From the IMG/VR virus record IMGVR_UViG_3300042558_001779, positions 1 through 53,196 of that record: a stretch of 53,196 nt of DNA; one strand, 5' to 3'. The DNA comes from a virus (taxonomy: Duplodnaviria > Caudoviricetes). Numbering within the stretch: the first letter of the stretch is position 1; each line of letters opens with the position of its first letter. Positions 2,810 to 52,067 of the stretch are shown here, in pieces. The notes beneath the pieces were generated by a model. It searched no databases. It saw only the letters and a list, made by a program, of their open reading frames with translations, and had not been told where the DNA came from. The translations under genes were made by a program, and so were the position numbers.

Positions 2810-3015
2810 CTCGCTAAAGCACATGTGGCTGAACAGTAGAACTTTTCTGCCTTCATACGAACCATTCCACGAACTGTACGCTTCCCGCATTTTCCGCATA
2901 CACATGCCGCGTCTTTTGAGCCATAGAAAAGGATTAGTGAACCGTGAGTGGCAGGGTCTTGGACTGTTTGCTTGCTTTGTCCTGCCATTGGCTTTGCTGG
3001 TTTTTTGCTTGCCAT
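2806..3015 (-). CDS. Small Zn-ribbon/TRASH-like protein, last gene of the head operon
   Basis: CGKCG...FYCSATC motif; abuts the upstream gene. Confidence 0.7.
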   Translation of the reverse strand: MASKKPAKPMAGQSKQTVQDPATHGSLILFYGSKDAACVCGKCGKRTVRGMVRMKAEKFYCSATCALAS

Positions 3016-3016
3016 G

Positions 3017-4084: not shown

Positions 4085-4089
4085 ATTTT

Positions 4090-4461
4090 TTAGTCCTGTG
4101 TCTTTTTGTATTTTTCAAGAAGTGAGCGACCTTTAGCCGCAAGTTTTGCTGCGTCTTCTGCTGTTTCTGGTACTGGTTCGCCCCATGCTGCTGCGGAAAG
4201 AGCCAAACGAGTTGGTCTTCCTTTTTCGTCTTTCAGGGGCCCACTGAGGTTTGTGAAAAACCTTGTCAAGAAAGAACCTTTGCGCCGCATCTTGTCTGGC
4301 GTATCTGCTGCTCCTCGTACACCAGGCTTCAGGTTTGAACCTTCTGTACGGTTGAAGTAAGCACGACCTGCAGCAGTTAAGCCACCTTTGGGGTCTTTGA
4401 GTGGTTTGTCCGCTTTTGCTTCAATAAAAACCACAAATGGAATGATGCTGTCTTCGTTCAT
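4090..4461 (-). CDS. Conserved phage protein (DUF6321-like)
   Basis: KDPKGGLTAAGR...NLKPGV...RRKGSFL motif. Confidence 0.7.
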   Translation of the reverse strand: MNEDSIIPFVVFIEAKADKPLKDPKGGLTAAGRAYFNRTEGSNLKPGVRGAADTPDKMRRKGSFLTRFFTNLSGPLKDEKGRPTRLALSAAAWGEPVPETAEDAAKLAAKGRSLLEKYKKTQD

Positions 4462-4507
4462 AATAAGTCTCTCTTGGATATAGATATTTTACGCTATATA
4501 AGCCCGT

Positions 4508-4546
4508 AAATAGAAGAACCCCCCGCCATTTCTGACGAGGGGTTCT
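4508..4546 (-). terminator. Rho-independent terminator downstream of the major capsid gene
   Basis: Minus strand AGAACCCCTCGTCA-GAAA-TGGCGGGGGGTTCT-TCTATTT. Confidence 0.8.
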
Positions 4547-4573
4547 CCAGTGCCTAAGGTAGGCGGATTGTTA

Positions 4574-5869
4574 TCAGGCAGGTGCGTTGTCGAAGGTAAC
4601 TGCGACGAAAGCCTCTGGACGCTTGACTGCAAGAGCGAGACGCTGCTCAGCAAGTACAACGATTGCGTTGCGGACGAAGAAGTCTGCGTGCTGTTCGCTG
4701 ATACGGATGCTTGCTTGCTCACGGTCATACAACTGTGCGCCTGTACCGAATGCTCCGACGAGAGCGGTGCCCTCGGTCATTGCTGGGGTATCGACGACAG
4801 GGATTCTCCACAAGCGTGGCTCGCCACCAAGTGCGACAGAGACAGCAACGAGGTACTGACCATTGTCGTCCTTTGACAATTCAATGTCTTCCCAATCATT
4901 AGGGTGCAACACGATGCCTGTTGGCTCGTAGTAAGCGAGGAACGAAAGGGTTGCTGCACGACGAAGTGCGTCAGCCTTGTTGTCCTTCGTTACACCGTCT
5001 GACCAGTTGTAGGTCTGTGGGTCTGAGTTCATGATGCCTGTGAGGTTTTCGCCAACACCATTACCGTTGAGGATTTGCTCATCTTCTTGCAAACGAAGAC
5101 CGTAAAGGAGTTCGTTGTCAATGATTGAACGCAACTGTGGCTCGTCGGCAAGCACATTGCGGTGTGCTGCTTCCCAGTGAGCGAGTGTGCGAACAGGAGC
5201 CTGCTCACCAACGAAGGTGAAGCCTGACTGTGGCTTCGCAGCAAATGCTGAACCGTCGCGCTCTGCGACTGAACCTGCATTGTTGGTGAAACCAGTCATG
5301 CGGAAGTACTCAACCACTGCGGCAGTCGTGGTGCGGCTTGGGAACAAGTCACGAACACGACGGGTACGCATTGGAGGAACAACGATTGGGTCGCGCTGGA
5401 TTGAACCAAACGAGCCAGGTGTACCTGATGGCATTGAGGAGAAAACATCCTTGGTTCCCCAAAGACCAGTGACATCGCCACGGTTCAATTGGAAAGGTGA
5501 AGGCATGTTTGCGCCGTTCTTGCCGCCTTGAAGGGACTTGAACTCAGGTGAGTCAAGGAACATTGCACCAAGCGACTTCGCTTGTGGCTGTTGTGTCCAT
5601 TGACCTTGAGCAGCAGCAGCAGATGCTACTGAATCGCTTGCAGGACGGTCGCCCCACTGCTCAACATCGCGCATTCCTTCAATACCCTCGATGAGGCTCT
5701 TGATTTCGCGGATGTCACGCATGTTGTTATCGAATGCTGACTTTTGTTCAGCACCAACGATGACGGTGCCATCTTCGATTTTGAATGAGTCTGCAATTGT
5801 TTTGTTGTCCGCCATCTTGGCACGCAAGGCACCTTGTAGTTCGCGGAGACGGGATTCGTCGAATGACAT
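4574..5869 (-). CDS. HK97-fold major capsid protein with N-terminal delta (scaffold) domain
   Basis: VRTLAHW, EQILNGNG.GENLTGI, LWRIPVV, FVRNAIVVLAEQRLALAVKRPEAF; strong AAGGAG RBS. Confidence 0.96.
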   Translation of the reverse strand: MSFDESRLRELQGALRAKMADNKTIADSFKIEDGTVIVGAEQKSAFDNNMRDIREIKSLIEGIEGMRDVEQWGDRPASDSVASAAAAQGQWTQQPQAKSLGAMFLDSPEFKSLQGGKNGANMPSPFQLNRGDVTGLWGTKDVFSSMPSGTPGSFGSIQRDPIVVPPMRTRRVRDLFPSRTTTAAVVEYFRMTGFTNNAGSVAERDGSAFAAKPQSGFTFVGEQAPVRTLAHWEAAHRNVLADEPQLRSIIDNELLYGLRLQEDEQILNGNGVGENLTGIMNSDPQTYNWSDGVTKDNKADALRRAATLSFLAYYEPTGIVLHPNDWEDIELSKDDNGQYLVAVSVALGGEPRLWRIPVVDTPAMTEGTALVGAFGTGAQLYDREQASIRISEQHADFFVRNAIVVLAEQRLALAVKRPEAFVAVTFDNAPA

Positions 5870-5950
5870 TGTTCACTCCTTAGTGAAAGTAATTTTGTTT
5901 TGCCAGACTAACGGCTCAGGTAAGCACCCACCCATAAGGTCTTATAAACG

Positions 5951-5984
5951 AGAATAACACCGTAGAGTATCTACGGTATGTAAC
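5951..5984 (-). promoter_or_regulatory. Putative late promoter of the capsid gene (GTTAC-N23-TATTCT) containing an inverted repeat
   Basis: TGn-TATTCT extended -10; ACCGTAGA-GTA-TCTACGGT at 5959-5977. Confidence 0.5.
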
Positions 5985-5994
5985 TATGTGTATT

Positions 5995-7245
5995 TTATTG
6001 AAGTTTTTCTTGACTGTCATCTTCTAAGGGAATGATGACATAACGCGTCTTTTTCCCTTTTGCATCAACCGTTTGGTCAATAGGTTCTGCAAGGTATTCA
6101 TCTCCGTCAATAAACAGCGATTTGCTACCTAATCCACGCTTTTTCCAAGGGTGTCCTTTAGGAAGAAGGTCGTTGTCTGTTACATAAGAAGCCTTAGCGC
6201 TTCCAGACATAAGCAGTCTCAGGAAGGCGTTTACTCTTCCCATTGCCCACTGGTTGCGGGTCATTCCTGGTCTGTGGCTGACACTGAATGCTCCAGCACC
6301 ACGGCGGTATACAGCCTTGAGTGCGCGAAGGTTGGTCTTTGACCATTCATTCTTGTCATTTTTCTTTACAGAAGCGTTATGTTCTCTTACCTTTGAAGAA
6401 AGAGTACGAACGATTGTTTCATCCATAGCAATAGAACCAGCAGAGCCAACAGAACCAGCAGAGCCAATACGGTTATTTCTAGAACCAATAACGCGGTCTT
6501 TCTTAGGTGCTGGAGTTTTAGCCAAAGACTTTTCTTCACAGCCACAATCCTCTTTTTTCTTTTGCTTCTTTGGGCGACCATCAGGACGAATATTCATCAC
6601 TCTGTTGTAATCAGGGGTCGCAGTACATGGAAGATAAACTCTTTTCCCATCACTTGCTGTGTAGGAGCGAATACCAATACATCCAAGTTGACGCGCACGA
6701 ACACGAGCAGAATCTGGGTTTGTGTAAACATCGGGGTCTGTTGAACGGCTTACATAATTAACAAAACCTTTTGCATCAATCGGCGTGATGTCTTCGTTTT
6801 TTCCAGAAACAAGAGAGCCGTCAGGGAGAGTGTCGATTGAAATGATTCCACCTTCGTTAAGTGGCTCCCAATCGCTCTTAGAAGGCTTTATCATCCCAGT
6901 GTTTTCTGGTCTGCCGTTATTCTTTGGCATACAGGCGGCATACATCGTTCCACCATTAATTCTGACTACACGAACTCTTGCGCAACCATTCCTTTTAGAG
7001 GCAGCAAGTGCTTGCTCTCTGGTCGGGTATAAGGATTTACTAATAGATGCGTGCCTAGCGGTTTTGCTTTCAATTAGTGAAATCTTTTCACCTTTTTTTG
7101 CTGGCAGTTTTTCACCACGAGAGACAGCAATAAATGTCTCTTCATCTTTGCATGGCAGCCAAGAGCCGTCCTCTGCCTGGTGTGCGCCATAGCATCCAAG
7201 GCGTTGAGCAATCTTCAAAGCCTGTTCCCGTGTTGATTTCATCAC
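5995..7245 (-). CDS. Head-associated protein with three DUF3721-like Cys repeats and a C-terminal DUF5824-like domain
   Basis: Three A..LGC.G.......Y/W.PC-type repeats; LKAVYRRGAGAF..SHRPGMTRNQWAMGRVNAF. Confidence 0.75.
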   Translation of the reverse strand: MMKSTREQALKIAQRLGCYGAHQAEDGSWLPCKDEETFIAVSRGEKLPAKKGEKISLIESKTARHASISKSLYPTREQALAASKRNGCARVRVVRINGGTMYAACMPKNNGRPENTGMIKPSKSDWEPLNEGGIISIDTLPDGSLVSGKNEDITPIDAKGFVNYVSRSTDPDVYTNPDSARVRARQLGCIGIRSYTASDGKRVYLPCTATPDYNRVMNIRPDGRPKKQKKKEDCGCEEKSLAKTPAPKKDRVIGSRNNRIGSAGSVGSAGSIAMDETIVRTLSSKVREHNASVKKNDKNEWSKTNLRALKAVYRRGAGAFSVSHRPGMTRNQWAMGRVNAFLRLLMSGSAKASYVTDNDLLPKGHPWKKRGLGSKSLFIDGDEYLAEPIDQTVDAKGKKTRYVIIPLEDDSQEKLQ

Positions 7246-7532
7246 TTCTTGTCTTTAACGATTTTAATTTTTGAAGGAACGCCAGGCTTTTTGCCTTCTT
7301 TTTCATCAACATTTTGAAAATCGATGTTGTTGTTTGCAACATCTTTGAAGACACTGTCTAACTCTTTACGGTTTTCTTTTTTTGAAAAATACCAAACAAG
7401 AGAGTGAAGCGTTTCTTCATCGCCGTCAGAAAGACTTTCAGAAACGATAGTTATCTTTCTGCGGACATCAACACCCAACTTAAAGTACTGCTCTTTAATG
7501 AATGAGATATTTCCCTCGGTCAACTTAGACAT
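7242..7532 (-). CDS. Small hypothetical protein downstream of the GNAT effector (candidate partner/immunity)
   Basis: 96 aa, tightly coupled to both neighbours. Confidence 0.7.
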   Translation of the reverse strand: MSKLTEGNISFIKEQYFKLGVDVRRKITIVSESLSDGDEETLHSLVWYFSKKENRKELDSVFKDVANNNIDFQNVDEKEGKKPGVPSKIKIVKDKK

Positions 7533-7534
7533 AT

Positions 7535-10153
7535 CTATTCCCTTTCATCTCTTGGGTCTGCTGAAATTTCATTCTTCTCCAGGTAAAAGGCACCGCTGCT
7601 AAATGGCATATTAGTAAGGAACCAATCTTTGATTTCTTGTTCCCTATCTTTTTTGGCTTGTCCTACTTCATTATTGCTCAAAGCATAGATGAAGTCCATG
7701 TGACGAACAGAGTTAGGGTCTGCTTGCTGTTTGCGAATTAGGTATTCAATCAACTTTGCATCATCTTCATTTTTGATAATGCTTTGTCTTCCACCCCTAA
7801 AGGCTGCTAGTTGTCTTTCCATTCGGCTAATTCTTGCTCCAAGATTGCCTGGGTCTTCAAAGCCCATTCTTCCCCAAACATATGGACCATCATCAACAGC
7901 ACTAACACTAACTTTTTCAAATCCAGCAGCACGGGCATACATCCATGAGTGCTGGTTGTAGATTGTTGCAATGCCAGAGTTTTTATGCTTGGCACCTCTA
8001 ATAAACATAGTGTTGTGATAAATGCGGTCACTTCCCGCATAAATCGTTCTTCCACTGCTGCCTACTGTTTCCCAACTACCATCATTTTTTTTGTGCTCAA
8101 TGCGAAGTCCGATAGAAATTTGTCCATCTCTTTCCACATAGGGAGGATTTTCTAGAACAATTCTATATGTTCTTCCATTTGTGCCCTTAATCTCATCATG
8201 GGTATACATTGCTGTAGCCCATTCGCGTAATTGACGCTCAGCATCCAGTTTTTCTTCAGGCGTGCCGTTTCTGAGTTTTTGAACAAGTTCCAGTCTGCGC
8301 TCTTGGGTCATTTCCTTCCAAGGAGCGTTACCTTTTCCATATCGTTCGTCGAGATATTTAGAAAGAACCTTTTTTCTGTTTTTGATGGCATCCTTAACTC
8401 GTTTGTTTGCTGCTGCAGCAACATCTGGCGCAAGGTCCTCAGGCACTGCGGCAGCAGGCTTATTAACAGCATCTTGATTATTAAGCAACGCTACAGCACG
8501 GTCAGCAAAAACATCGCGACGCATTGCTGCATCTTTCAAATTAGCGTTAATATTGTAGATTTCTCGTGCAATTCGCTTTCTTTCAGCAGCATCTGGTTCG
8601 TTTTCAAAACGAAGCATTGCTTCTCTTAACGCTTTTCGATATTCCTGCTTTCGGTCATTAAATTCGTTGGCATTTTGAATAACATTTTCGCGAGGAGAAT
8701 TTGCAATTTCATTAAACCGTACCAACGCATCTCGCTCATAAATTAGGCGATTTTCTCTGTCTCTTGGTGTCATGGCCCAATCTTCATTGCGGTAAAGGTC
8801 ACCCAATACGCCATCAAGTTCATTCCAATCAATGCCGTCGCCAACATTAAGTCTTCCAAATGCTTCCCAATCTGGCTGGTCTTTACCACCTGCGGCTCCA
8901 GCCTTTGGTGCTTTGTCACCAGAAAGTTCTTCTAAACGATTCTTAAATGCGTTACGCCGATTAAGAGCCATCGCATAGTCTCTGTTCTTCTGCAGAATCT
9001 TTATCTGCATAACCTCAAAGTCGTTATTGTTTGCATCTGGACCATCCGCTCTCATCTTGTCAAGAGCATCTTGGAGTTCCCTCTTAGCCTCTTTTACATA
9101 ACGGTCCTGATTTTCAATGTTTCCGCGAAGTTCAGCAAGGTTCTCTTTACCCCACGCATTCATATCTCTCAAAACATTTTTGCGAGCAACCTCAATTTCG
9201 TTCTGTGCTTCTTCAATATCATTCTTGCTTAAACCAGCAAACCGTGAAAGTTCATCAGCATTAAGAGGTTCATCACCAACACCAATAAATCCAGCGGCAC
9301 GAATCTTTTCACGCACAGGATTTTCTGCCTCTGGCTTGACGGCTGGTTTTTTAGGCTTTGCCACCAACTTAGGTGGTTCATCATTTCCACCAGCAGCAGG
9401 AGTGACACGACGAGCAGCAGCCTTCTTGGCAGGTGCCTTCTTCTTGACTGCCTTCTTCTTTGCTGCAGCCTTTTTGACTGGAGCCTTCTTTGCAGGCGCT
9501 GGAGCCTCTGGAGCATCAACTTCGGGCTTTGGCTTCTCTCTTGTTACCTGTTGTGTAGCAGGTCGACGACGAGCAGCAGGGGCATTGGGTCGTGGACGAC
9601 GGGCAGGAGGAACATCGCCTTCACCAGTGCGAGGAGCGCCAGGCTGGTCAATTTCTCTCTCAATACGGCGCAACTCTGAATCACGGAAATTTGGCTTTCG
9701 GCTACGCTGAACTTTTCCACCACCGCGTCTAGTGCGTGGTGCTTTAGGTGCTTCTACTGTTTCTGTGCTGTCTAATGCGTTGGCAATACCTCGGGCTGCT
9801 CTTTCAAGTCTTCCGCCTTCTTGCATTCTCCGTACTACACGCTCGTTGCGACGATTCACACGACGACCGCGACGACGGTCTCCAATATTTTCAAGACGCT
9901 CGCCAAGGTCGGAAATTTCATTTGCTAATCGACGAGAAACACCCCAGCCACAGTTACGACCGAAACGGTCAGTGATTTGACCACCGTAACGAGTACCTGG
10001 CGGGCAACGCCAACCACCCCGACGATTAGTGCCAGGGATTGCAAGGCTGTCGTCAAATACGGCGCGTGTTCTTTTAACTTCGTAGGCAATTGATGATGTA
10101 TCACGCTCTGAAATAAAAGATTTTGCTCTGTATGTAGATATTTCACGGAGCAT
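7535..10153 (-). CDS. Large protein: conserved N-terminal RCP..TD..C module, PAKK repeats, helical region, C-terminal GNAT acetyltransferase-like domain
   Basis: KHKNSGIAT (GNAT motif A) ... GFEKVSVSAVDDGPYVWGRMGF; N-terminus nearly identical to part of the 984 aa ORF. Confidence 0.8.
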   Translation of the reverse strand: MLREISTYRAKSFISERDTSSIAYEVKRTRAVFDDSLAIPGTNRRGGWRCPPGTRYGGQITDRFGRNCGWGVSRRLANEISDLGERLENIGDRRRGRRVNRRNERVVRRMQEGGRLERAARGIANALDSTETVEAPKAPRTRRGGGKVQRSRKPNFRDSELRRIEREIDQPGAPRTGEGDVPPARRPRPNAPAARRRPATQQVTREKPKPEVDAPEAPAPAKKAPVKKAAAKKKAVKKKAPAKKAAARRVTPAAGGNDEPPKLVAKPKKPAVKPEAENPVREKIRAAGFIGVGDEPLNADELSRFAGLSKNDIEEAQNEIEVARKNVLRDMNAWGKENLAELRGNIENQDRYVKEAKRELQDALDKMRADGPDANNNDFEVMQIKILQKNRDYAMALNRRNAFKNRLEELSGDKAPKAGAAGGKDQPDWEAFGRLNVGDGIDWNELDGVLGDLYRNEDWAMTPRDRENRLIYERDALVRFNEIANSPRENVIQNANEFNDRKQEYRKALREAMLRFENEPDAAERKRIAREIYNINANLKDAAMRRDVFADRAVALLNNQDAVNKPAAAVPEDLAPDVAAAANKRVKDAIKNRKKVLSKYLDERYGKGNAPWKEMTQERRLELVQKLRNGTPEEKLDAERQLREWATAMYTHDEIKGTNGRTYRIVLENPPYVERDGQISIGLRIEHKKNDGSWETVGSSGRTIYAGSDRIYHNTMFIRGAKHKNSGIATIYNQHSWMYARAAGFEKVSVSAVDDGPYVWGRMGFEDPGNLGARISRMERQLAAFRGGRQSIIKNEDDAKLIEYLIRKQQADPNSVRHMDFIYALSNNEVGQAKKDREQEIKDWFLTNMPFSSGAFYLEKNEISADPRDERE
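9788..10126 (-). repeat. Copy 1 of a 339 bp duplicated coding module (copy 2 at 12655-12993)
   Basis: Both encode AKSFI...YEVKRTRAVFDDSLAIPGTNRRGGWRCPPGTRYGGQITDRFGRNCGWGV.RRLANEISDLGER...GGRLERAARG. Confidence 0.92.
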
Positions 10154-10436
10154 CGTAACCGTATTCCTTTAAGAGTTTGTCGACTTTTTCTTTTGCAGCG
10201 CCAGAGTATTCCCCTTTTTCTACAGAAGATGTGTCGCTAACGGAAGCGACTCTTTCCATTTTTAGTTCTTCTTTTGAAGGGTTTTCTTTTTTAAGGTTTT
10301 CGTACCATGTGTTGAACCATGTGTCGTAATTCTTTGACTTTGAATATTGTTTTACTGTGTCGCCAAAGTCAATATAAATCAATACGCCATCTGCTTCCAC
10401 ATCTGGCATTTTTTCTTCTGCAATCATGTATTTCAT
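10143..10436 (-). CDS. Small hypothetical protein downstream of kinase effector 1 (candidate partner/immunity)
   Basis: Likely start MKYMIAEE at 10436 with AAGGA upstream; 97 aa. Confidence 0.72.
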   Translation of the reverse strand: MKYMIAEEKMPDVEADGVLIYIDFGDTVKQYSKSKNYDTWFNTWYENLKKENPSKEELKMERVASVSDTSSVEKGEYSGAAKEKVDKLLKEYGYDAP

Positions 10437-10446
10437 TATTTTTCCT

Positions 10447-13389
10447 TTAACTTCCGATGATGAGGTCTGCAATTGATGATGCACTTAGCGAAAGGAAGAA
10501 ATCAATTCGTTGCTGAGGCTCGTCAATAAGTTTTCTTTGTTCGGTGTTTCCGACAACATGTCTTTGTGCGCCACGAGCAAATTCATCAAATTTCAAATCT
10601 CTCTGGCTACGACGCATATTATCTTGCATATCTTGTACTACGCGAGCAATTTCATCGCGTGTTACTTGATTTCTTTGTACTGACTGACGGAGACGGGCAA
10701 GCATGTCATTTCTCCCACCACCGCGATGGCTTTCGAGGAATGCTGCCAGACCTGCTCTGTCTGCCATTGCGCCATTCCAGTTTGCATACACCTCAGCATT
10801 GAAGCCTAAAGATGGGTCAATTGGAACAAACCTGTTTTCCCCATTTTGTTCGGCAACGAAGTAGTTGCCCGCATGTCTGTCGACATTAACAATAAGGTAG
10901 TCAAGAATTGTGGCGCGAACTTTATCTTCGTTAGATACTTCACCGCCATTTCGTGGAGATTTGATATCCCCCTCAATGTAGTTGCCAGCATGTTCGAACA
11001 AGATTGGTCTTAAAGCGCCGTGCCTGTCATTCTTTAGCGGACCAGCGAATCTAAATTCTCCAACGGGGAAGCCGAGTCTTGCTGCCATGTTGTTACCGAG
11101 GATTTCGCGAATGTCTTCACCTTTTGCAGCACGACCATTTTCATACTTTGTATAGTATTTTTTACCGTTTGTACTATCTTCAAATAGGAACATGTTGTCT
11201 GCAATTTGACCATTTACTCCTCCGCCAGCGGCTTCGCGTTTGAAACGCTTGCCTGGACCAGAGTTGTCATGCAGTGCTTTAAGCACGAAATCGTCTGGGA
11301 CATCAGCAATGTCACCGCCATTAGCAACATGGAGAATTGCGTCAGCCTCAGTGTTCATTCCCTTGTTTCCGACTGGAACGCCACCCCATCCAGGGAAACC
11401 ATCTTCGCCAATTGGGCCAAGTTTTCTGTCGCCTCTCTTGGAGCGAAGGAATCCTCGTGCCGCCTGAGCAATTTTTGCCCCTCGTCTTGTCTTTGCTTGC
11501 GCTGGTGGAGACGGAGGTGTAATTGCTGCTGGAGATGGGGTGTCGGTGAGAACAGGGGGGACTTGAGAACGACGAGGACCAGGGCGTGGTGGTTCATTGT
11601 GAACATCGAGATTTGCACCATTAGCGTTCGCTCTGTCGACTTCTGCCTTTGACACGACATAGTATTTGCCGTTGTGCTTAACGATTTTGTAATCACCGCG
11701 TTGTGCAGGATTTTCTTGTTCAATAAATTCGCGCTTGCGCCGTGCTGCCGCTAGGTCGTTTACGCCACGCTGACCAGGAGCGTTGAATGGCTTGCGCTGA
11801 CGACGGGCAGGTTGGTTTGCGTCTGGGGCATCGGCAGGCTTTGGACGGCGTGTTGCTGTACGGGCTGCACCAGCATCTGTTGCTGTGCGGCGAGCGCCAC
11901 GACCTGCGTTTCTCTGCTGGGCACGATTCCAGTTTTCTTCAACTGCTGGTCCGTGGAACTGGTCCCATTCTTCGCGTCTTAAAAATCCAGCGTTGCCGCC
12001 TGCTTCGTTAATTTCGCGCACACGCTGTTGGTGTTCGTTGAATTTGCGTGTCTTGTATTGTTCAAGTGTTTCGCCTGCTCGTGGTGCGCCAGCAGGTACT
12101 GGGGTTCCGCTTACATTGTCAACTTGTGGTCGACGGGGTTTGCGTGGTTGGCGCTCAGGGACGATATCTCCTGGGCGAGGGCGAACGCCTTGTCCGCCAC
12201 CATCTAGACCATTTGGGTATCTTCCACCAGGAGGGATTACACCCTGACCGCCGTTTGGCAGAATGTCTGGTCGACGGGGTTGGCGGGGTTGGCGTGGCTT
12301 AGCAGGGCGAGCCTGTGGAGCCTTCGGTCTCTTTGGTGAGGGCGTAACTTCACCAGGAAGTTTTGGGTCGCGGATTCCACGACCGCCACCATCAAGACCT
12401 CGTGGTCTACGAGGGCTAGGCGTTCCGTTTGGCACTGTTTCTTCGCCGTTCCATCCTTCTCTGAAACCTTCGATGAATGCACCTACAGCGCCACCTCTAT
12501 TGCCTCTACGGCGACGACGACCGCCATTGTTGTCTGAGTCCAAAGCGTCTCCAACACGACGGGCAGCACGCTCAAGGAGACCAGTACCACGAGGCTTTGA
12601 AGAATCAGGGGTATCTACACCTGGTCTGTTTGTTACATCAAGTACATCTGCAACTCCACGGGCTGCTCTCTCAAGACGACCACCTTGTGCTAAACGACGA
12701 CCAACGCGCTCATTGCGGCGAGATACTCGGCGTTCACGACGCTTGTCTCCGATGTTTTCTGCACGCTCACCGAGGTCAGAGATTTCATTAGCCAAACGAC
12801 GGGCTACACCCCAGCCACAGTTACGACCGAAACGGTCAGTAATTTGTCCACCGTAGCGAGTTCCTGGCGGGCAACGCCAGCCGCCTCTACGATTTGTACC
12901 TGGAATAGCAAGACTGTCGTCAAAAACAGCACGAGTACGCTTCACTTCATAAGCAAATGTTGATTTATTTACATCAGCAATAAAAGATTTTGCTTTGAAC
13001 TGAACAGCATTGCGCCATTCGCTATTTTCAAGATAGTCAAGACGGGCATCCATCAAAGAAATGACTGGCACAAGTTCGGCAGATTTTTCTTCTTTTGCTG
13101 ACTCGACTGGTTCAACTTCTTGAGTTTTCTTAGACTTGGCAATTAACTCGTCAATCTTTGCTTTGTTTGCACGATTTGCTACGACTGGACCTTCAACATC
13201 CATTGAGTTATCAAGAGTTGCGGATAGTTCCTGTTTTGTTATTGTACGAGCAGCGTATTCATCTTTCATCCATGATGCCCATGTCGTGGATGATTCAGCA
13301 AGTGGGTAGAACTCTGTTCCTCCAGCAAGAAGCGCAACTACTGCGTATGGCTTCCCTGTCTTGTCTTTGATAATGAACGCTGATTTCAT
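10447..13389 (-). CDS. Large protein: small N-terminal domain, RCP..TD..C module, Arg/Pro-rich linker, C-terminal HipA/PI3K-PI4K-like kinase
   Basis: GGGVNG loop, YYTKY, EILGNNMAARLG, DYLIVNVDRHAGNYF, IDPSLGF; ATG at 13389 just after the upstream stop. Confidence 0.85.
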   Translation of the reverse strand: MKSAFIIKDKTGKPYAVVALLAGGTEFYPLAESSTTWASWMKDEYAARTITKQELSATLDNSMDVEGPVVANRANKAKIDELIAKSKKTQEVEPVESAKEEKSAELVPVISLMDARLDYLENSEWRNAVQFKAKSFIADVNKSTFAYEVKRTRAVFDDSLAIPGTNRRGGWRCPPGTRYGGQITDRFGRNCGWGVARRLANEISDLGERAENIGDKRRERRVSRRNERVGRRLAQGGRLERAARGVADVLDVTNRPGVDTPDSSKPRGTGLLERAARRVGDALDSDNNGGRRRRRGNRGGAVGAFIEGFREGWNGEETVPNGTPSPRRPRGLDGGGRGIRDPKLPGEVTPSPKRPKAPQARPAKPRQPRQPRRPDILPNGGQGVIPPGGRYPNGLDGGGQGVRPRPGDIVPERQPRKPRRPQVDNVSGTPVPAGAPRAGETLEQYKTRKFNEHQQRVREINEAGGNAGFLRREEWDQFHGPAVEENWNRAQQRNAGRGARRTATDAGAARTATRRPKPADAPDANQPARRQRKPFNAPGQRGVNDLAAARRKREFIEQENPAQRGDYKIVKHNGKYYVVSKAEVDRANANGANLDVHNEPPRPGPRRSQVPPVLTDTPSPAAITPPSPPAQAKTRRGAKIAQAARGFLRSKRGDRKLGPIGEDGFPGWGGVPVGNKGMNTEADAILHVANGGDIADVPDDFVLKALHDNSGPGKRFKREAAGGGVNGQIADNMFLFEDSTNGKKYYTKYENGRAAKGEDIREILGNNMAARLGFPVGEFRFAGPLKNDRHGALRPILFEHAGNYIEGDIKSPRNGGEVSNEDKVRATILDYLIVNVDRHAGNYFVAEQNGENRFVPIDPSLGFNAEVYANWNGAMADRAGLAAFLESHRGGGRNDMLARLRQSVQRNQVTRDEIARVVQDMQDNMRRSQRDLKFDEFARGAQRHVVGNTEQRKLIDEPQQRIDFFLSLSASSIADLIIGS
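12655..12993 (-). repeat. Copy 2 of the 339 bp duplicated coding module
   Basis: Collinear and same length as 9788-10126; the core differs mainly at synonymous sites. Confidence 0.92.
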
Positions 13390-13390
13390 A

Positions 13391-15598
13391 TTAGATTCCA
13401 AGCAATTTTATTGTCTGCTGTTTTCCACGGACAAGCCTGTCAAGGCGTAATGTAAACAGTTTTTTGAGAATTTCTAGGTGAGCCTGTTCTGAGCGGGAGA
13501 GGTTTCCATCTGCCGAGAGACGACTTGCGTATTCGTCCCATTTAAATTTCTGTGCTCTATCGATAAGGGTATCATAAATACCAAGTAGTTCATTTCTCTC
13601 TTTGGGAGAAAGAGAGCCGAATCTGTCTTTGTAAATTTTGCTACTGCGATTTTCAATATATGTTGGCAGGTCGATTTTGAATCGCTCAGCAATGTCTTCG
13701 GCACTCAGACCAGAGAGCGCTGAAAGTTCATTTCCTGATGGGACGACAATAAGTTTTTGCTGTGTGCGCACTGGACGCAGTGTTGCTGGGGAACGGTCAC
13801 GAGCATCTGTCAAGTAATCTGCCATAAATACGCGAAGCATGTCTTCTGCGGAAACCTTGCTGAAAGGTTGGTCAAAATCAATACGGTTGCCATCGTTAGC
13901 GACATCGCCAATAAATGATTCACGCGAACCATCTTTGCCAATAAACCTAACTGCTGGTGTCGGAATACCTAACTGTGAAGCAACATCTGAATAGTATCTC
14001 TCTGCGATGGAGCCATTCTTTTTAGTTTCAGGAACTTGGTAATAAGTCTTGCCAGAACCATCTGAATACTCAGTAACTCCAGTACCCAACTTGCGAGATT
14101 GATACTTCTTGCTACGACGCATAGCATCAGACAAAAATTCAGGAGAAATATCAAACGGGTCTCCGCCGTTATCAATCAACTCAACAGCGTCAGCAAGGTT
14201 CTCTGGAGCATCAGAAACATTAGCCCCATCCTCACGAAGAGTTTCTTTCTCCACGCGGGCAGAAAGTTTACCAGTCTTGCCGCTGTCCTTCATGAAGGTT
14301 TCATAAACCCAACGGCGAACTTCTTTTTTATTGCCATTAGCATCTTCAACTTCAATCAAATCAAGAGGCTTGGGAACATTGGGAAACTTCTCTGAATATT
14401 TGAAAGCACCGCCAGAACCATTAGCAAAATCACGAATGTTATTACCGACATCATATTGGTCACTGGCAGCAGCAACATTGTTCAACTGGCGACCGAACTT
14501 ACGGCGCTCACCAACAGTTAAATCACGCTGACGCTCAATTGAAAGAACGGAACCATTTGGTGTTACATAAGCAACTTGACGAATTGCTGGACCAGATAAT
14601 AGAGCAAGGTCATCACCAACGATGTCGGTTGGCTTTGCAATAGAGCGAACAAAAACGCCATTTTCCATGTCAGGGTTGCCGCCAAAGTTACGCAAAACAG
14701 AAGAAGGGACAAGAGACCTCAGGATGACTCCATCCTTACGGATTAGGCGTGACTCTCCAGCGGGGGAGCCAGTAATACCTGAAATAACCTTAGCCACATT
14801 GGCAGCCCGAACTGTAGGATTTTCAACAGCACTACGGGGAACCTTCGCCATACGCATAATCTGAATTGCACGACTTTGTTCTGGAGTCGTACCCTCTACA
14901 ACCTCTGAAACATCCTCAGCCCGTGCTCTAGCAATTGCGGGCTTATCTCCGCGCAAAGAGTTAACCGCGGCATTGAGTGCAAGTTCAAACAACTGTGCTC
15001 CACAGGTGCTGTAGTTTCTGTCTGTAAATCTACCGCCATGCTGGAAACCTGCTGGACAGCGATATCCGCGTTCACCGTTTGGGCGAGGAATTCTACGGCC
15101 TCCACCGCCACCAGGAACCAGTGCTGAATAAATGCGCGAACGGATAGGGCTGCGAATTCCTGAAATGTCGCCAGGTATTGCAGCAGTTCCAGCCGCTTGT
15201 GCTGCTTGACCAAGGCGGCTCTGTGAACCAATCAACCCAACTTTTACCTGAATTTCTTCGCTTGTTTGTTTTACTTGGACATCTGCGCCGATTCGTGGCT
15301 TTGTTGTGCGAGTAAATGCTGCAGCCTTAAAGTTGAGAGCGTTCTTATTGTTTTGTAGTTCTACTTGATTGCGAAGAATTGCTGACTTTGAACGGATGTA
15401 GGGTTCAAGCGGTCGCTTGATTGCTGTTTCGCCATTGACAAAATGACGGGTGCTTTTCGACTTTTGACGGCTTGGGTAAAAATCAATTGTGCGATAGTTG
15501 TCTACTGCAACTGTACGGCGTACTACTGCGTCTTTGAGCATGGTCGGACGATGATGACGCAAGAGGGAATTAATTGAACCATTGGAGTTATTTATCAT
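13391..15598 (-). CDS. Large protein with RCP..TD..C module and degenerate C-terminal HipA/PI3K-like (pseudo)kinase
   Basis: YRCPAGFQHGGRFTDRNYSTC; AERYYSDVASQLG; DYLTDARDRSPATL in place of DRHxGN. Confidence 0.75.
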   Translation of the reverse strand: MINNSNGSINSLLRHHRPTMLKDAVVRRTVAVDNYRTIDFYPSRQKSKSTRHFVNGETAIKRPLEPYIRSKSAILRNQVELQNNKNALNFKAAAFTRTTKPRIGADVQVKQTSEEIQVKVGLIGSQSRLGQAAQAAGTAAIPGDISGIRSPIRSRIYSALVPGGGGGRRIPRPNGERGYRCPAGFQHGGRFTDRNYSTCGAQLFELALNAAVNSLRGDKPAIARARAEDVSEVVEGTTPEQSRAIQIMRMAKVPRSAVENPTVRAANVAKVISGITGSPAGESRLIRKDGVILRSLVPSSVLRNFGGNPDMENGVFVRSIAKPTDIVGDDLALLSGPAIRQVAYVTPNGSVLSIERQRDLTVGERRKFGRQLNNVAAASDQYDVGNNIRDFANGSGGAFKYSEKFPNVPKPLDLIEVEDANGNKKEVRRWVYETFMKDSGKTGKLSARVEKETLREDGANVSDAPENLADAVELIDNGGDPFDISPEFLSDAMRRSKKYQSRKLGTGVTEYSDGSGKTYYQVPETKKNGSIAERYYSDVASQLGIPTPAVRFIGKDGSRESFIGDVANDGNRIDFDQPFSKVSAEDMLRVFMADYLTDARDRSPATLRPVRTQQKLIVVPSGNELSALSGLSAEDIAERFKIDLPTYIENRSSKIYKDRFGSLSPKERNELLGIYDTLIDRAQKFKWDEYASRLSADGNLSRSEQAHLEILKKLFTLRLDRLVRGKQQTIKLLGI

Positions 15599-15962
15599 TT
15601 TTTTGAGTTCCCATATTTTTGTCCATTTCCATAAGCACTATGTCTATTGGTGACATTTGGCGTTGAGCATCAAGTTCTAGTTCCTCTTGACGGTTGCTTT
15701 CATCTTGTCGGCTAATTTGAGCGCGAACTGTGTTCAACATAGATTCTATATCAAGAGTGACTTCCCCAATTTGACTATCTTGATAGGGGAAGCGATTTGA
15801 AATTCTTTCTAAAGTGCTGTATGCGTCACGCTTTAATAATTCTTTCATCTCTTTACGGATTTTTATGTTATTGCTTACAACTTCGATACTGCCATTATCG
15901 TCTACAAAAACAATTGGCGCAAAGGGGGTTGTTCCATCTGAACTGACTAGTAAAAATCTCAT
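15588..15962 (-). CDS. Small hypothetical protein downstream of kinase effector 2 (candidate partner/immunity)
   Basis: About 124 aa (MRFLLVSSDG...); overlaps the start of the next gene. Confidence 0.72.
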   Translation of the reverse strand: MRFLLVSSDGTTPFAPIVFVDDNGSIEVVSNNIKIRKEMKELLKRDAYSTLERISNRFPYQDSQIGEVTLDIESMLNTVRAQISRQDESNRQEELELDAQRQMSPIDIVLMEMDKNMGTQKNDK

Positions 15963-15968
15963 TACCAA

Positions 15969-17438
15969 CTATGCCTCACTGCTGACTACTGGCATTTTTT
16001 CTCTATCAAATTCATTAATTTTTTCTTTACCTATGATTTCGGTAAATAAATCTTGAGCGCTTATAGACCTTGCGTATTCAAGACGCAAAATTGAATCTTC
16101 GATTTGTTTTCTTTTAGAAACAGCATTGAAATCATCAAACGCTCCCACATCTCTTTGTGTTTGCATTTGCTCAAAAACAGCAATTAACTCATCTGCCTTT
16201 CTGCGTAATTCATCCGTATTTATTTCTTTTAGTCGCGTTTGTATGTTCCTAAGCGTTTCGAGCGCCTCGTCGTTTGCTACATCTTCAAAATACGCTTGTT
16301 TAAATACTTCAACCATTATATCTGGTCTATACATGTCGTCAAAAAGAGCATCGTTCCTTGCATTTGAATCAAATCCAAGCGAGTTGTCGATGGGCACCAT
16401 GTAACTAACTCCGCCGTCTGTTTCAAGCAAAAAGTTTCCAGTATGCCTATCTCCATTGACCATAATTGAATCAAATAATGCAGTTGTCCATAAAGACTCT
16501 TTGTCAATATTTTCTGGTGTTTTAGTAATAGTGTAAGGTCCAAAATTCCTTTCAACACTATGGATTTTACCAGACCTGCGATTATGCACTAGTTCTGACA
16601 CAAGAGTAACGCCATTGTATTCTGCTGGAACAATACGCATCGGTATTGGTTCAAAACCTAGCGCTTGAGAAAAGTGCTCACCCATTACTTCGTTTAATGG
16701 TTCTGCAATATGAAACGATGGTGCTTCTTTATATTTATAGCCAATCATGTTCCCCGTAATCGTGTCTTCGAGGCGTGTCATTCCATTTACACCACCACCC
16801 GAACCAATGACTTTAAAACGCGGTTTACGACCAAAAAGTCCTATTCTCCCAGAGTTTGAAACAATCGCAGCCATTAGGTATTCATCTGGAATATCAGACA
16901 ATGAACCACCGTCTCCAATATGTTTAATTGCATCAGCAGAGGACTCAATAACTTTTGACTCCCCAGTTTTGGGGTCTTTAATTATTGCGCCAGAAGGAAC
17001 TGGTTTAATTTCAAGACGACCAGCAGCATCAGAAAATCCGACACCAGAATCAACAATTTGTTTTTCATCTTTACTTGATTTAGGTCTCAAAAATCCTCTA
17101 TTGAAACCGCCAGCCAACTTTTTTAACCCATCAGCGGCAGCACGCGCAGCCTCATTTGCTGCTGTTTGTGCGCTTGGAACCATACAGTTAGACATATTTA
17201 TGTCTGTGAACTGATTGGCATTAGGGGTTCCTGCTGGGCATCGCATCTTGCCGTTTTCGTCAACAATAACGCCTGCACGCCGAGCAGAAGTTACACCTAC
17301 AGAAGGAACACTATTGTCTTCCCGCAATGACCGTCCAAGAAAACCTTTTGTGCGGATGCCGTCGCCTACAGACTTAAATGCTGCTGCAGCCTTCACTACC
17401 CTCTGAGTGGGGTCAAATGGTTGTTCGTAGACAGCCAC
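15969..17438 (-). CDS. Protein with RCP..TD..C module and C-terminal HipA/PI3K-PI4K-like kinase
   Basis: MRCPAGTPNANQFTDINMSNC; GSGGGVNG, IGYKY, NEVMGEHFSQALG, DSIMVNGDRHTGNF, IDNSLGF. Confidence 0.85.
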   Translation of the reverse strand: MAVYEQPFDPTQRVVKAAAAFKSVGDGIRTKGFLGRSLREDNSVPSVGVTSARRAGVIVDENGKMRCPAGTPNANQFTDINMSNCMVPSAQTAANEAARAAADGLKKLAGGFNRGFLRPKSSKDEKQIVDSGVGFSDAAGRLEIKPVPSGAIIKDPKTGESKVIESSADAIKHIGDGGSLSDIPDEYLMAAIVSNSGRIGLFGRKPRFKVIGSGGGVNGMTRLEDTITGNMIGYKYKEAPSFHIAEPLNEVMGEHFSQALGFEPIPMRIVPAEYNGVTLVSELVHNRRSGKIHSVERNFGPYTITKTPENIDKESLWTTALFDSIMVNGDRHTGNFLLETDGGVSYMVPIDNSLGFDSNARNDALFDDMYRPDIMVEVFKQAYFEDVANDEALETLRNIQTRLKEINTDELRRKADELIAVFEQMQTQRDVGAFDDFNAVSKRKQIEDSILRLEYARSISAQDLFTEIIGKEKINEFDREKMPVVSSEA

Positions 17439-17456: not shown

Positions 17457-17708
17457 TTACTCTGTTGGCTCTGAAGCAGGCTCTTCAGCAGGTGCTTCTT
17501 CAGCAACTACTACTGTCTCTTCGACAACTGGAGCAGGCTCAGACTCAACGACTGGCTCAGACTTCTTCTTAGACTTCTTGTCGGCAGCCTTAGGCTCTTC
17601 AGCCTCAACTACTTCAACGACTTCAGTCTTTGATTGAACTGGCTCAACAGCCTTGTTTTCAACTTGGATAAACCCAGTTGTGCTTGGTTGAACTTTTTTC
17701 GGTGCCAT
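17457..17708 (-). CDS. Small acidic low-complexity protein
   Basis: 83 aa, E/P/V/A-rich, TAATG-coupled to the upstream gene. Confidence 0.7.
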   Translation of the reverse strand: MAPKKVQPSTTGFIQVENKAVEPVQSKTEVVEVVEAEEPKAADKKSKKKSEPVVESEPAPVVEETVVVAEEAPAEEPASEPTE

Positions 17709-19114
17709 TATTGTTCCTCAATTCCTGTCTCAACAGCGAGCATTTCAAATTCCATAAGGTCTGCAAGGAACTTCGTTGCTTCAGCATCGTCGCTCTTCTC
17801 GCCTTCGGTCATGTCCTCTTCAGGCTTGACCATTTCCTCGGATTCCTCTTCGTCGTCTTCCATGTCCTCGGACTTTTCGGACCATTCTTCTGGAATCATG
17901 TCTTCCTTGCCAAGTTCTGCTGCGCGCTTCATGATATGAGCCTTTGCTGCTTCCTTGTCTCCTGCGCGACCGTATGCTTGGATTGCGTTCTTGAGGTCGT
18001 CTTCATCCTTGATTGGGAATGAACCGTCAGGAAGTGCTTCTCCAGCCTCTGCCATTGCGTTGCGAGCCTCTTCGTCATACATGCGCTTGAGGGCGAGGTC
18101 TGCAACTTCTGCATCGATGTCTGCTGCTTCGTCTGCTTCGTACTCATCCCATCCAAGGACTTCTCCGTCCAAGGAAACGAATACATCGTATGACTTGCCA
18201 TCAAGACCGTCAATTTCAACTGCGAAAGCGTCGTAGCCTTCAAACATGTCTGCATCAACGCTGATTACATCGCCTTCAACTGACTTTGTAGCGAGGATTG
18301 CTGCTTCGTTGAACGAGATAACTTTTGTGCCGTTAATTTCTGCAACTTCGCCAATGACGCTTTCGTTGAGAAGGTGCCAGCCCATGCATTCACCAGTTGA
18401 ACCATCAAAGAATGCTTCAATTGGCTTGCCATCTTTGCGCTGAACATCAACAACATAAATGTCTGTTTCATCTGAATAGCCAGAGTCAAGAACTTTTCCT
18501 GAGAACATGTCCTCAGCAACGCCTTCAACTTCAAGAAGTGACGGCATGTCTTGTTCTGCTGCACAACCACCTGGGCATTGTGCGCAAACTGTTGCACCAC
18601 CAGGGAGCATCTTGCGTTCAAACGCGCAAACAAATGCGTCGTCGTCGAAATCTGCTGACTTAACGCCCATTGTGTCCATGCGCTTTGCACGAGCCTTCTT
18701 GCGCTTTGCCATTGGAGATTCGTCCATCAACTCTTCTTCGACACCTTCGACCATGTTGGACATAGGCGAACCGCCCTTGGTGTCCATGTCGTCTACGGTG
18801 ACCCAGCCATCTTCTTCGATGTCTGACTTAACGGAAACTGCTGCTGCGCCGCATTTGCCGCACACCTTGTCTCCGACCTTGTATCCGCATTCTGAGAGTT
18901 CAAGACCCTTTGCGCATGAAATGCTGCCGTCTGCGCTCAACTTGACTGTGGGCTTGTCTGCCATGTCTTCTGTCTCCTTGTATTGCATGGTTGATGAAAT
19001 ACAACCCTTAGGATTGGTACATCCAGAACATGGGTTCATTCGCTTTTCGCCTGAAACCATGCAATGAAATTTTGCTGTTGTTTTTGGTAAACCGTTCTGA
19101 GAAGTATAACTCAT
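17708..19114 (-). CDS. Cys-rich, acidic head protein with two PepSY-like repeats and a DUF6582-like domain
   Basis: CxxC clusters; YVVDV..KDG...FDGSTGE and FAVEI...DGKSYDVFVSLDGEVL; ALPDGSFPIKDEDDLKNAIQAYGRA. Confidence 0.78.
   Translation of the reverse strand: MSYTSQNGLPKTTAKFHCMVSGEKRMNPCSGCTNPKGCISSTMQYKETEDMADKPTVKLSADGSISCAKGLELSECGYKVGDKVCGKCGAAAVSVKSDIEEDGWVTVDDMDTKGGSPMSNMVEGVEEELMDESPMAKRKKARAKRMDTMGVKSADFDDDAFVCAFERKMLPGGATVCAQCPGGCAAEQDMPSLLEVEGVAEDMFSGKVLDSGYSDETDIYVVDVQRKDGKPIEAFFDGSTGECMGWHLLNESVIGEVAEINGTKVISFNEAAILATKSVEGDVISVDADMFEGYDAFAVEIDGLDGKSYDVFVSLDGEVLGWDEYEADEAADIDAEVADLALKRMYDEEARNAMAEAGEALPDGSFPIKDEDDLKNAIQAYGRAGDKEAAKAHIMKRAAELGKEDMIPEEWSEKSEDMEDDEEESEEMVKPEEDMTEGEKSDDAEATKFLADLMEFEMLAVETGIEEQ

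Positions 19115-47235: not shown

Positions 47236-52067
<4,832 letters not shown>

Follow-up and report, generated by a model that had tools for sequence, protein, structure and literature searches.

The 53,196-base IMG/VR record IMGVR_UViG_3300042558_001779, which as a whole will be called the window, is a linear viral fragment (Caudoviricetes) with a CheckV completeness of 36%, and the subject of this report is an array of large genes lying in its head operon. This operon runs on the minus strand in the order portal-MuF, thioredoxin, S78 protease, p468, p83, p489, p126, p735, p984, p113, p872, p96, p416 and capsid (coordinates in Table 1). The original prediction, made from the letters and their translations, placed four large genes (489, 735, about 980 and 872 amino acids) between the protease and the capsid genes, described their products as sharing an N-terminal tag and ending in different enzyme domains, and proposed that they are loaded into the head and ejected on entry. 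The open reading frames (ORFs) confirm the four genes and reveal three more in the same interval, p468, p83 and p416, that had gone unmentioned. Three of the large genes are also followed, as had been stated, by a small one, with p126, p113 and p96 coming after p489, p984 and p872 and none after p735, and Pfam places the MuF domain on the portal protein (residues given in Table 1), the four putative cargo proteins being free of any MuF fusion, again as expected.

What unites the four large proteins is the motif RCPxG..[FI]TD..C, 20 residues long. The six-frame translation of the window contains four copies of it and no more, a single one in every large ORF and always with 18 residues between the cysteines, and none of 2000 shuffles of the 16 head-operon proteins contains it. 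A larger module of about 70-100 residues, without a Pfam model, has this motif as its core; the canonical form of the module, KGFLG..RCPxGTPNANQFTD..C, occurs on p489, with diverged forms on p735, p984 and p872; residues 3-151 of p872 and 130-279 of p984 are 71.5% identical. The motif starts at residue 66 in p489, 180 in p735, 176 in p984 and 49 in p872. The sharing of the tag therefore stands, with four copies of identical cysteine spacing, but a strictly N-terminal location can be maintained only for p489 and p872. K-GFLG, conserved where the module begins, is a candidate cleavage site for the prohead protease. The module is absent from all of the 128 small ORFs considered below, and a scan covering 185,579 species, with one genome apiece, produced 27 pattern matches, none of them confirmed, and no prophage copy. 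In three relatives (P0007, P0027 and P0031), a homologue of p83 is fused to the front of the p489 homologue. Residues 1-125 of p984 form a further front domain (about 75-125 residues) ahead of the two-cysteine module, which is kept in relatives and lacks a family match.

The identification of p489 and p984 as HipA/PI3K-like kinases is one in which fold and motifs agree, with Pfam scores that stay below threshold. In Pfam, p489 reaches 23.1 bits for PI3_PI4_kinase (cut-off 27.1) and 18 bits for HipA_2 (cut-off 27), and p984 reaches 16.4 bits for both PF20613 and PF00454, under their cut-offs; some relatives do exceed the cut-off (30.8 bits in locus L003), 10 of 32 relatives of p489 at the same position match PI3_PI4_kinase at E<=0.001, and NCBIfam gives nothing near its cut-offs. 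Since Pfam support was weak for the kinases, and absent for the acetyltransferase discussed below, both were checked by folding. The AlphaFold2 model of p489, built with 38 homologues, has a mean predicted local distance difference test (pLDDT) of 78.6, with values of about 75-96 over residues 110-480, and its Foldseek matches in the PDB are kinases only (144 at E<=0.001). The best of them is CtkA from Helicobacter pylori (E 8.9e-6; template modelling (TM) score 0.30-0.33 by query and 0.46-0.52 by target), followed by Fam20C, VPS34 and PI4KII-alpha (probability 1.00, E 9e-6 to 2e-4, TM 0.25-0.52). Residues K235, E250, D330, R331, H332, N335 and D351 are invariant in the 38 kinase sequences, and the catalytic motifs are intact in both proteins of the window, namely DRHTGN (330) and IDNS (350) in p489, and DRHAGN (841) and IDPS (861) in p984; DRHxxN is kept in 45 of 52 distinct kinase-positive ORFs. 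Model and motifs together support the view of p489 and p984 as HipA/PI3K-like kinases with intact catalytic motifs.

The degenerate kinase of the original prediction is p735. Its family aligns with the kinase family with an hhalign probability of 98% (E 2.3e-13), while DRSPAT stands in place of DRHxxN and VPSGNE in place of VPIDxS, and it is because of these replaced motifs and the lack of a Gly-rich loop that we call p735 a conserved pseudokinase. Its residues 1-215 are basic (net charge +20), and for its conserved middle (residues 216-462) the ESM Atlas gives no usable feature match (structural TM<=0.30 with a poor model).

Kinase folds of this type are also present in other phages. When the kinase part of p489 was compared with phage records at E<=5, the matches were at chance level (best 0.8), one of which, gp82 of Microbacterium phage Pumpernickel, was later backed by the kinase hidden Markov model (HMM). 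This 2235-residue protein (2992-9699 in locus L089), from a cultured 186-kb actinophage, ends in a match to the kinase catalytic loop (kinase HMM E 4.1e-8; Pfam PI3_PI4 E 7.2e-5, under the cut-off) and lacks the two-cysteine module. Its gene lies two genes downstream of the portal gene, after the small gp81, and is followed by the 205-residue gp83 (9689-10306). Virion proteomics of this kinase type might take Pumpernickel as its cultured model. In the BFVD, the p489 model matches a 1201-residue 'portal protein, HK97' of an uncultured phage and several 'ADP-ribosyltransferase' proteins of 1220-1340 residues, one of them the 1340-residue protein of Mycobacterium phage Onyinye; further kinase-fold matches come from Gordonia phages Sixama and GodonK and from two tailed viruses of haloarchaea. 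By these modelled folds, this kinase type may be a common head-associated payload.

The fourth large protein, p872, had been assigned a GNAT acetyltransferase end. The AlphaFold2 model of its last 273 residues, from 31 homologues, has a pLDDT of 93, and Foldseek returns 21 matches at E<=0.001, all of them acetyltransferases (p300/CBP, NatD, PatZ and various GNATs), with a probability of 1.00 for several GNATs and TM scores of 0.25-0.32 by query. In VIA, all 50 of the rows listed are GNAT or related histone acetyltransferases, with Z scores of 7.8-8.8, the best being human GCN5 (Z 8.8, root-mean-square deviation 3.5, 113 aligned residues). The sequence KNSGIA, of the KxxGxA type, is found at residues 724-729, where the domain model has a predicted strand before it (111-119) and a helix after it (129-143). 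With respect to the GNAT pyrophosphate motif (Q/R)xxGx(G/A), Lys replaces Arg or Gln; in the 32 sequences, G128 is invariant and K125 nearly so. The GNAT call is made because the matches are uniform and the KxxGxA motif sits in the expected loop, and not because of the score. On this basis, p872 would end in a GNAT-fold domain, a predicted acetyltransferase, which the modelling supports as it does the kinase folds. The domain has 38 homologues in a set of 5.8 billion proteins, being C-terminal in 37 of them. A single-sequence scan of viral contigs with it confirmed none, and an alignment-based scan found seven loci; in the six of these seven that extend far enough, the array closes with a GNAT-type gene and a small ORF, after which come a p416-like gene and the capsid gene.

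A conserved front with variable C-termini, the polymorphic layout that had been proposed, was borne out by the relatives of the array. The p489 search retrieved 96 proteins, 45 of which match only its first <=181 residues and are unrelated to it over the remainder. An alignment of the module (A1) led to 126 confirmed places in IMG/VR, the best 80 of which were fetched with 10-kb flanks and labelled by custom ORF calls together with BLAST and HMM searches. The recurring order in these loci is portal-MuF, thioredoxin (in some), protease, a p468-like gene, a tagged gene (that is, one carrying the module), a small ORF, p735-like and p984-like genes, another small ORF, and more p984- or p872-like genes. 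The link with head modules is strict, since the p468-like gene ends less than 800 nucleotides upstream of the tagged gene in 79 of the 80 loci; a portal homologue is found in 50 of the 63 loci having at least 6.5 kb of upstream flank, and in 49 of 80 loci, a good number of them ending early, the tagged gene has a p735 homologue downstream.

Variability is most evident at the first position of the array, the one that p489 takes in the window. The gene at this position is complete in 63 of the 80 loci, yielding 40 non-redundant proteins of 220-3490 residues, which together with p489 fall into 18 architecture clusters at 60% mutual coverage, with blocks shared at differing positions; the mutual-coverage rule replaced a single-linkage clustering of C-terminal parts at E<1e-5 that had merged all of them into one component. 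Apart from the ten PI3_PI4_kinase matches mentioned above, Pfam finds DUF3626, RNase_T, KTSC and HipA_2 once each among 32 first-position proteins, and RNase_T in two of three giant tagged proteins. For most of the 32 first-position, 30 later-position and 21 large tagged proteins scanned, it finds no family, RNase_T occurring in four of the 21, whose alignment consensus contains HExxH. Portals 73% identical to that of the window are accompanied by first-position proteins of three kinds, none of them a kinase (about 639, 795 and 920 residues), and portals 65-66% identical to it by kinases; in these comparisons, backbone similarity does not predict the payload. Comparison of the loci shows related phages exchanging C-terminal domains together with partner genes.

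A broader profile of the module (A7), run against 1.84 billion representatives, extends this picture to 425 matches at E<=0.001, of which 244 reach E<=1e-10 and 27 reach E<=1e-30. Among the 150 listed, the matching proteins have 99-4121 residues and in 149 cases carry the module within their first ~282 residues, the exception being P0274 (567-646). Tagged proteins of 2600-4100 residues are encoded directly after the scaffold-like gene in several phages (P0179, P0183, P0205, P0242 and others; loci L064-L079), with no Pfam family over most of their length.

Small ORFs of at least 40 residues were collected in the gaps after large genes. Their largest family, family 1, has 38 members of about 100 residues, p126 and p113 among them, and follows kinase-bearing genes at either position. 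When 122 junctions after large genes were labelled with the kinase and family HMMs, 32 combined a kinase with family 1, 17 had a kinase without it, 3 had family 1 without a kinase, and 70 had neither, counts that describe a pattern and not a probability or a test, since the loci share descent. The three junctions of family 1 without a kinase comprise one split gene and two cases with two small ORFs after a non-kinase protein. Other first-position types are paired with different small-ORF families, and the GNAT-bearing gene is followed by a small ORF of 87-115 residues in all seven related loci, 43-46% identical to p96 in three of them. These associations support the idea that the small downstream genes co-vary with the type of enzyme. 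Family 1 itself has no match in Pfam, PHROG or NCBIfam, and its best PDB sequence match (E 0.039) is not significant. All 41 matches of its HMM are in ORFs of fewer than 200 residues, none being in the large ORFs of the loci. The front domain of p984 was considered as a fused partner-like domain and rejected, with the family-1 HMM missing p984 at E<=10 and an hhalign probability of 6%.

A possible function of these small proteins is suggested by the predicted complex between residues 110-489 of p489 (38-row alignment) and p126 (21-row alignment). The model has an ipSAE of 0.77, compared with 0.00 for the best of three controls; the mark set for this score is reached by 58 of 80 solved complexes and by 2 of 110 mismatched pairs, which is a rough guide only, since the alignments were custom-made. 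Agreement between the runs extends to at least 78% of contacts, the partner has a pLDDT of 74 or more, and as a model the complex supports binding. The confident interface comprises, on the kinase side, the Gly-rich loop (211-222), K235, residues 283-298, the catalytic loop (330-337) and I350-D351, and, on the side of p126, residues 9-15, 32-47 and 52-65, with the nearly invariant Tyr60 at the centre. Because the interface falls on the Gly-rich loop, K235, the catalytic loop and I350-D351, p126 is predicted to occupy the catalytic cleft of p489 in the manner of an inhibitor or pseudosubstrate.

The position of the array with respect to the scaffold and capsid genes can be derived from p468. 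Its residues 343-408, with a motif around PDGSFPIKD..NAI..YGRAG, have a counterpart in cultured actinophage genomes (25 matching records; 52-65% identity in the 15 listed). In Microbacterium phage Cece and the Gordonia phages DalanDe and ChisanaKitsune, the gene containing this stretch is annotated as a capsid maturation protease; other records carry the stretch in genes annotated as hypothetical and, in one case, as portal. This distribution suggests that the motif is a widespread scaffold or capsid-binding element. In ChisanaKitsune, the capsid gene comes immediately after the gene with the p468-like stretch, which sits where a scaffold domain usually does, and the array is accordingly inserted between the scaffold and capsid genes. 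The proteins of this interval have striking charges, with net values of +25 for p735, +41 for p984, +34 for p872 and +26 for p416, against -64 for p468; residues 216-660 of p984 form an Arg/Pro-rich linker (net +46) and residues 86-290 of p872 a Lys/Arg/Pro/Ala-rich one (net +34). Such strongly basic proteins would suit a location against packed DNA. p416 contains three DUF3721-like cysteine-containing repeats and a DUF5824 domain, its relatives in loci L082-L084 (59-70% identity) being likewise encoded directly upstream of the capsid gene, and it could serve as one more internal protein of the head or as a decoration protein.

Our favoured reading, in which we place rather better than even confidence as a full mechanism, is that of an array of enzyme cargo proteins in the head-assembly operon that are inhibited, loaded into the head, injected, and active on the host; the loading, the ejection and the targets are the parts that we infer. 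The cargo proteins would be made late with scaffold and capsid, as the position in the operon indicates, and each live enzyme would be kept inactive in the producing cell by the small, downstream-encoded acidic protein predicted to sit in its catalytic cleft. The two-cysteine module would address the cargo to the assembling prohead, be it to the scaffold, the capsid interior or portal-MuF, where the basic segments would lie against the packed DNA, and the untagged inhibitor would be left behind. On infection, the enzymes would exit the head with the DNA and phosphorylate or acetylate host proteins before phage gene expression, for host takeover or for the disarming of defences, a step that we propose by analogy with T4 Alt, P1 Dar, the polyvalent proteins and the T7 kinase. 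Related phages swap the C-terminal domains along with their partner genes, as the comparison of loci shows. A bolder version, to which we give clearly less credit and which we put forward tentatively, would make the module a general and transferable address loading proteins of 200 to more than 4000 residues into the proheads of a large clade of uncultured aquatic phages, via portal-MuF or the scaffold, with enzymes pre-made and unplugged at packaging, the virion serving as an injection device, and the pseudokinase organising or activating the live kinases.

The outcomes that would speak most directly against the favoured reading, namely fixed C-termini, no link with head genes or folds other than kinase and GNAT, did not occur in these comparisons. 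Several observations nevertheless weigh against it. The variability is concentrated in the first position, where the predicted variable ends are indeed found, and at the later positions of relatives kinase domains prevail; all 28 non-redundant p984- and p872-like proteins link to the kinase group by their last 400 residues under single linkage, with the same caveat about merging as above. The kinases of the window do not reach the curated cut-offs for PF20613 and PF00454, p872 matches no Pfam acetyltransferase family at E<=0.01, and a VIA Z score of about 8 is middling by the tool's own note. The module has a low pLDDT (about 40-65 over residues 1-100 of p489), and it is located about 100-280 residues into p735, p984 and the giant relatives instead of at their N-termini. 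Recognisable family-1 partners are missing from 17 of 49 kinase genes, and the ORFs of related loci are longest-ORF calls. With tblastn, p489, p872 and p735 had no match in 50,697 phage records and thus no cultured module-bearing phage was found, and the absence of WhiB (PF02467) from this fragment, 36% complete, leaves it without that host clue.

Other explanations for the array have to be considered in the light of the same data. The enzymes might never be packaged and act late in the cytoplasm, blocking abortive infection, shutting off the host or excluding superinfection, with the small proteins as regulators and the module as an oligomerisation or localisation domain. This agrees with the intact enzymatic domains and with predicted partners that could time their activity, and the T7 kinase, a broad anti-defence factor according to PMC13645617, acts from the cytoplasm; packaging, moreover, is something that we infer. 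We regard it as unlikely all the same, given that the place between scaffold-like and capsid genes is constant in 79 of 80 loci, that otherwise unrelated proteins of up to 4121 residues share the module, that extremely basic segments beside an acidic scaffold would be hard to account for, and that a co-expressed active-site blocker would be needless for enzymes acting in the producing cell. The net charges of p735, p984, p872 and p416 would also make sense if these were mainly structural internal head proteins, condensing DNA or belonging to an inner body or an ejection apparatus, whose enzyme-like domains had been co-opted with little or no catalysis. The pseudokinase p735, the most constant member of the array and one without a partner gene, would fit such a role, as would three p872 relatives with a precomputed Pfam hit to PF07382, which we take to be histone H1-like. 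What makes this improbable is the conservation of the catalytic apparatus, both in DRHxxN (45 of 52 kinase-positive ORFs) and in K235, E250, D330, H332, N335 and D351 (all 38 sequences), together with a dedicated partner predicted to cover exactly these invariant residues, which therefore argues that kinase activity matters; the first-position ends are also too variable for a fixed structural role.

Finally, after their release from infected cells or virions, the kinases and acetyltransferases could act as toxins in protists that have ingested them, in the manner of a 'trojan horse' against eukaryotic grazers. In fold, the kinase is similar to VPS34, PI4KII-alpha, Fam20C and CtkA, which H. pylori secretes; the head region of a related cultured phage includes a VIP2-like toxin gene; and a trojan-horse proposal exists for VIP2-type toxins of 24 freshwater phages in passages of 10.1101/670067. 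Yet these fold matches are only to the general kinase fold (TM 0.25-0.33) and uninformative on substrate, Pfam detects no translocation or receptor-binding domain, and the co-encoded predicted active-site blocker argues for an enzyme that is harmful or active in the bacterial cell, so that we consider this explanation very improbable.

Table 1. Genes and domains of the head operon, by position in the window.
Feature	Position	Strand	Evidence
Portal with C-terminal MuF domain, 732 aa	21600-23798	-	Pfam Phage_portal E 5.2e-52; Phage_Mu_F E 1.6e-8, residues 644-729
Thioredoxin, 106 aa	21280-21600	-	Pfam Thioredoxin E 1.1e-28
Prohead protease with long C-terminal extension, 677 aa	19130-21163	-	Peptidase_S78 E 8.5e-12, residues 23-172; phrog_80 head maturation protease E 7.7e-31
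p468, acidic, scaffold-like	17708-19114	-	Net charge -64; homologue adjoins tagged gene in 79/80 loci
p83, acidic low-complexity ORF ahead of p489	17457-17708	-	ORF list
p489, canonical front module and predicted HipA/PI3K-like kinase with intact motifs	15969-17438	-	Motif, fold, catalytic residues
p489 front module, residues ~1-105	~17124-17438; 20-aa motif 17184-17243	-	Motif
p489 kinase part, residues ~110-489	within 15969-17438	-	DRHTGN at 330, VPIDNS at 348
p126, putative small acidic partner of p489 kinase	15588-15968 (probable start 15962)	-	Small-ORF family membership; predicted complex
p735, basic front, diverged two-cysteine module, middle, putative pseudokinase	13391-15598; motif 15002-15061	-	hhalign, motifs
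p735 putative pseudokinase, residues ~461-735	13391-14218	-	DRSPAT / VPSGNE
p984, front domain, two-cysteine module, basic linker, predicted kinase	10447-13401; motif 12817-12876	-	Kinase HMM E 3.8e-41
p984 predicted kinase, residues 661-984	10447-11421	-	DRHAGN at 841, VPIDPS at 859
p113, putative small partner after p984 kinase	10143-10484 (probable start 10436, ~97 aa)	-	Family HMM E 4.2e-25, residues 17-113
p872, two-cysteine module, basic linker, helical middle, predicted GNAT-fold end	7535-10153; motif 9950-10009	-	Motif, AlphaFold2 model
p872 predicted GNAT-fold domain, residues 600-872	7535-8356	-	AlphaFold2 model and structural matches
p96, small gene after GNAT-type protein	7242-7532	-	Small ORF at same place in 7/7 related loci
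p416, basic (net +26), DUF3721 and DUF5824	5995-7245	-	Pfam; always directly upstream of capsid gene
Major capsid protein, HK97 type, 431 aa	4574-5869	-	Pfam Phage_capsid E 2.6e-48

p984 has 984 residues when read from TTG and about 980 from the ATG at 13389, the latter start being favoured because it fits the 0-3 nucleotide junctions of relatives. The rest of the window encodes a B12-type ribonucleotide reductase, Rad52, a Cas4-like nuclease and baseplate J, as well as a T4-type large terminase on the plus strand. The fragment comes from a tailed phage, probably of the myovirus type, since baseplate J is encoded and the closest cultured relative of the capsid protein has an annotated tail sheath. 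This capsid protein is 49% identical to that of Gordonia phage ChisanaKitsune and Gordonia phages of the genus Chidieberevirus, which carry genes for an RNA ligase, a VIP2-like toxin and a large HNH protein between portal and protease. Hints about the host are limited to these actinophage relatives of the capsid and to those of the scaffold motif. A plus-strand gene (47274-52067) encodes a 1597-residue protein with ten stretches of collagen triple-helix repeats (Pfam E 7.4e-54) and a weak C-terminal Lcl match, possibly a tail fibre.

Two of the genes upstream of the array deserve mention. The thioredoxin gene between portal and protease is present in only some relatives (L002, L003, L006, L007 and L009), and a redox link between its product and the two invariant cysteines of the module is conceivable. 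The protease gene is itself modular, judging by its homologues: residues ~330-540 correspond to a separate ORF of about 210-226 residues within the array of phages with giant tagged proteins (L050, L052, L057, L065-L067, L069, L071, L074 and L088), and DUF6321, which in the window is the separate p123 (4090-4461), is fused to the protease in other relatives.

Several known systems share features with this array, the polyvalent proteins and the MuF toxins most closely. HipBA and HipBST are toxin-antitoxin systems of HipA-family kinases in which a small adjacent protein neutralises the toxin, HipS reaching the active site of HipT. Like these, and like the GNAT toxins AtaT, TacT and KacT, which are among the structural matches of the p872 domain, the array pairs an enzyme with a small adjacent protein, and the predicted partner reaches the active site of the kinase. 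In contrast with these systems, the partner is here encoded downstream, there is no helix-turn-helix antitoxin, and the enzymes come as fusions with modules of the head operon and with basic linkers. Delivery from the head is represented by the internal proteins and Alt of T4 and the Dar proteins of P1, which are loaded through a short targeting element at prohead assembly, injected with the DNA and active before phage expression. They have no sequence relation to the proteins described here, whose module is longer (about 70-100 residues), with two conserved cysteines, and whose cargo is polymorphic between close relatives.

T4 Alt is also mentioned in passages of Iyer et al. (2017, PMC5512222), the work on polyvalent proteins of phages and conjugative elements, which would be packaged in capsids, include kinases and GNATs among their domains, and vary like cassettes. 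The concept of packaging multi-enzyme proteins that include kinases and GNATs in the head is thus already published. The likeness extends to large multi-domain proteins encoded beside portal and head genes, a packaging context also found here, to the shuffling of domains between relatives, and to the giant tagged relatives of up to 4121 residues, with RNase_T in four of the 21 scanned and a HExxH consensus; those of 2662-4121 residues combine these two features with a lack of Pfam matches over most of their length. However, polyvalent proteins are described in those passages as having 2 to 15 conflict-related domains per polypeptide and kinases of a truncated Ser/Thr/Tyr type, whereas the payload is here split over four or five genes, all with the two-cysteine module and each with a single enzyme domain besides module and linker, its kinases are HipA/PI3K-like with a full C-terminal part, and each live enzyme is paired with a small partner gene.

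The MuF toxins have a similar layout. As set out in passages of Jamet et al. (2017, PMC5576092), they consist of a conserved head-associated front domain and a variable C-terminal toxin, are encoded in the head and packaging module, have a small ORF after them in 89.4% of 191 genes, and are exclusive to temperate phages. The array shows the variable C-terminus on a conserved front (18 architectures among 41 proteins, 45 of 96 matches limited to the front) and the small downstream gene (32 of 49 kinase genes, seven of seven GNAT-type genes). It differs in the defining fusion, Phage_Mu_F being restricted by Pfam to the portal, in its address, which is another module, in its location between scaffold and capsid genes instead of after the portal, and in that no prophage copy was found in the species-wide scan. 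As regards other sources, passages of PMC12619734 and 10.1101/670067 report no kinases in this setting, and in the literature searched, the supplementary domain lists of Iyer et al. apart, no paper was found that describes the module or the array. What sets the array apart from the polyvalent proteins as Iyer et al. present them is a separate and unnamed address module, a multi-gene payload, HipA/PI3K-like kinases, and a small partner for each live enzyme.

If these proteins are indeed loaded and injected, an abundant clade of uncultured phages would supply kinases and acetyltransferases that are ready for use as soon as infection starts, and would swap them, together with their inhibitors, among relatives. 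This would extend the idea of polyvalent proteins and MuF toxins to phages for which no prophage copy was found, adding to it a new address module, without a Pfam model and represented by 425 sequence clusters, and a payload split over several genes. The module would be a candidate tag for the loading of foreign proteins into capsids, and the small downstream proteins would constitute a new family of kinase inhibitors predicted to bind the active site. The tagged proteins of 1000-4000 residues, most of which have no Pfam match, would represent a reservoir of uncharacterised domains, probably acting on host physiology or defence.

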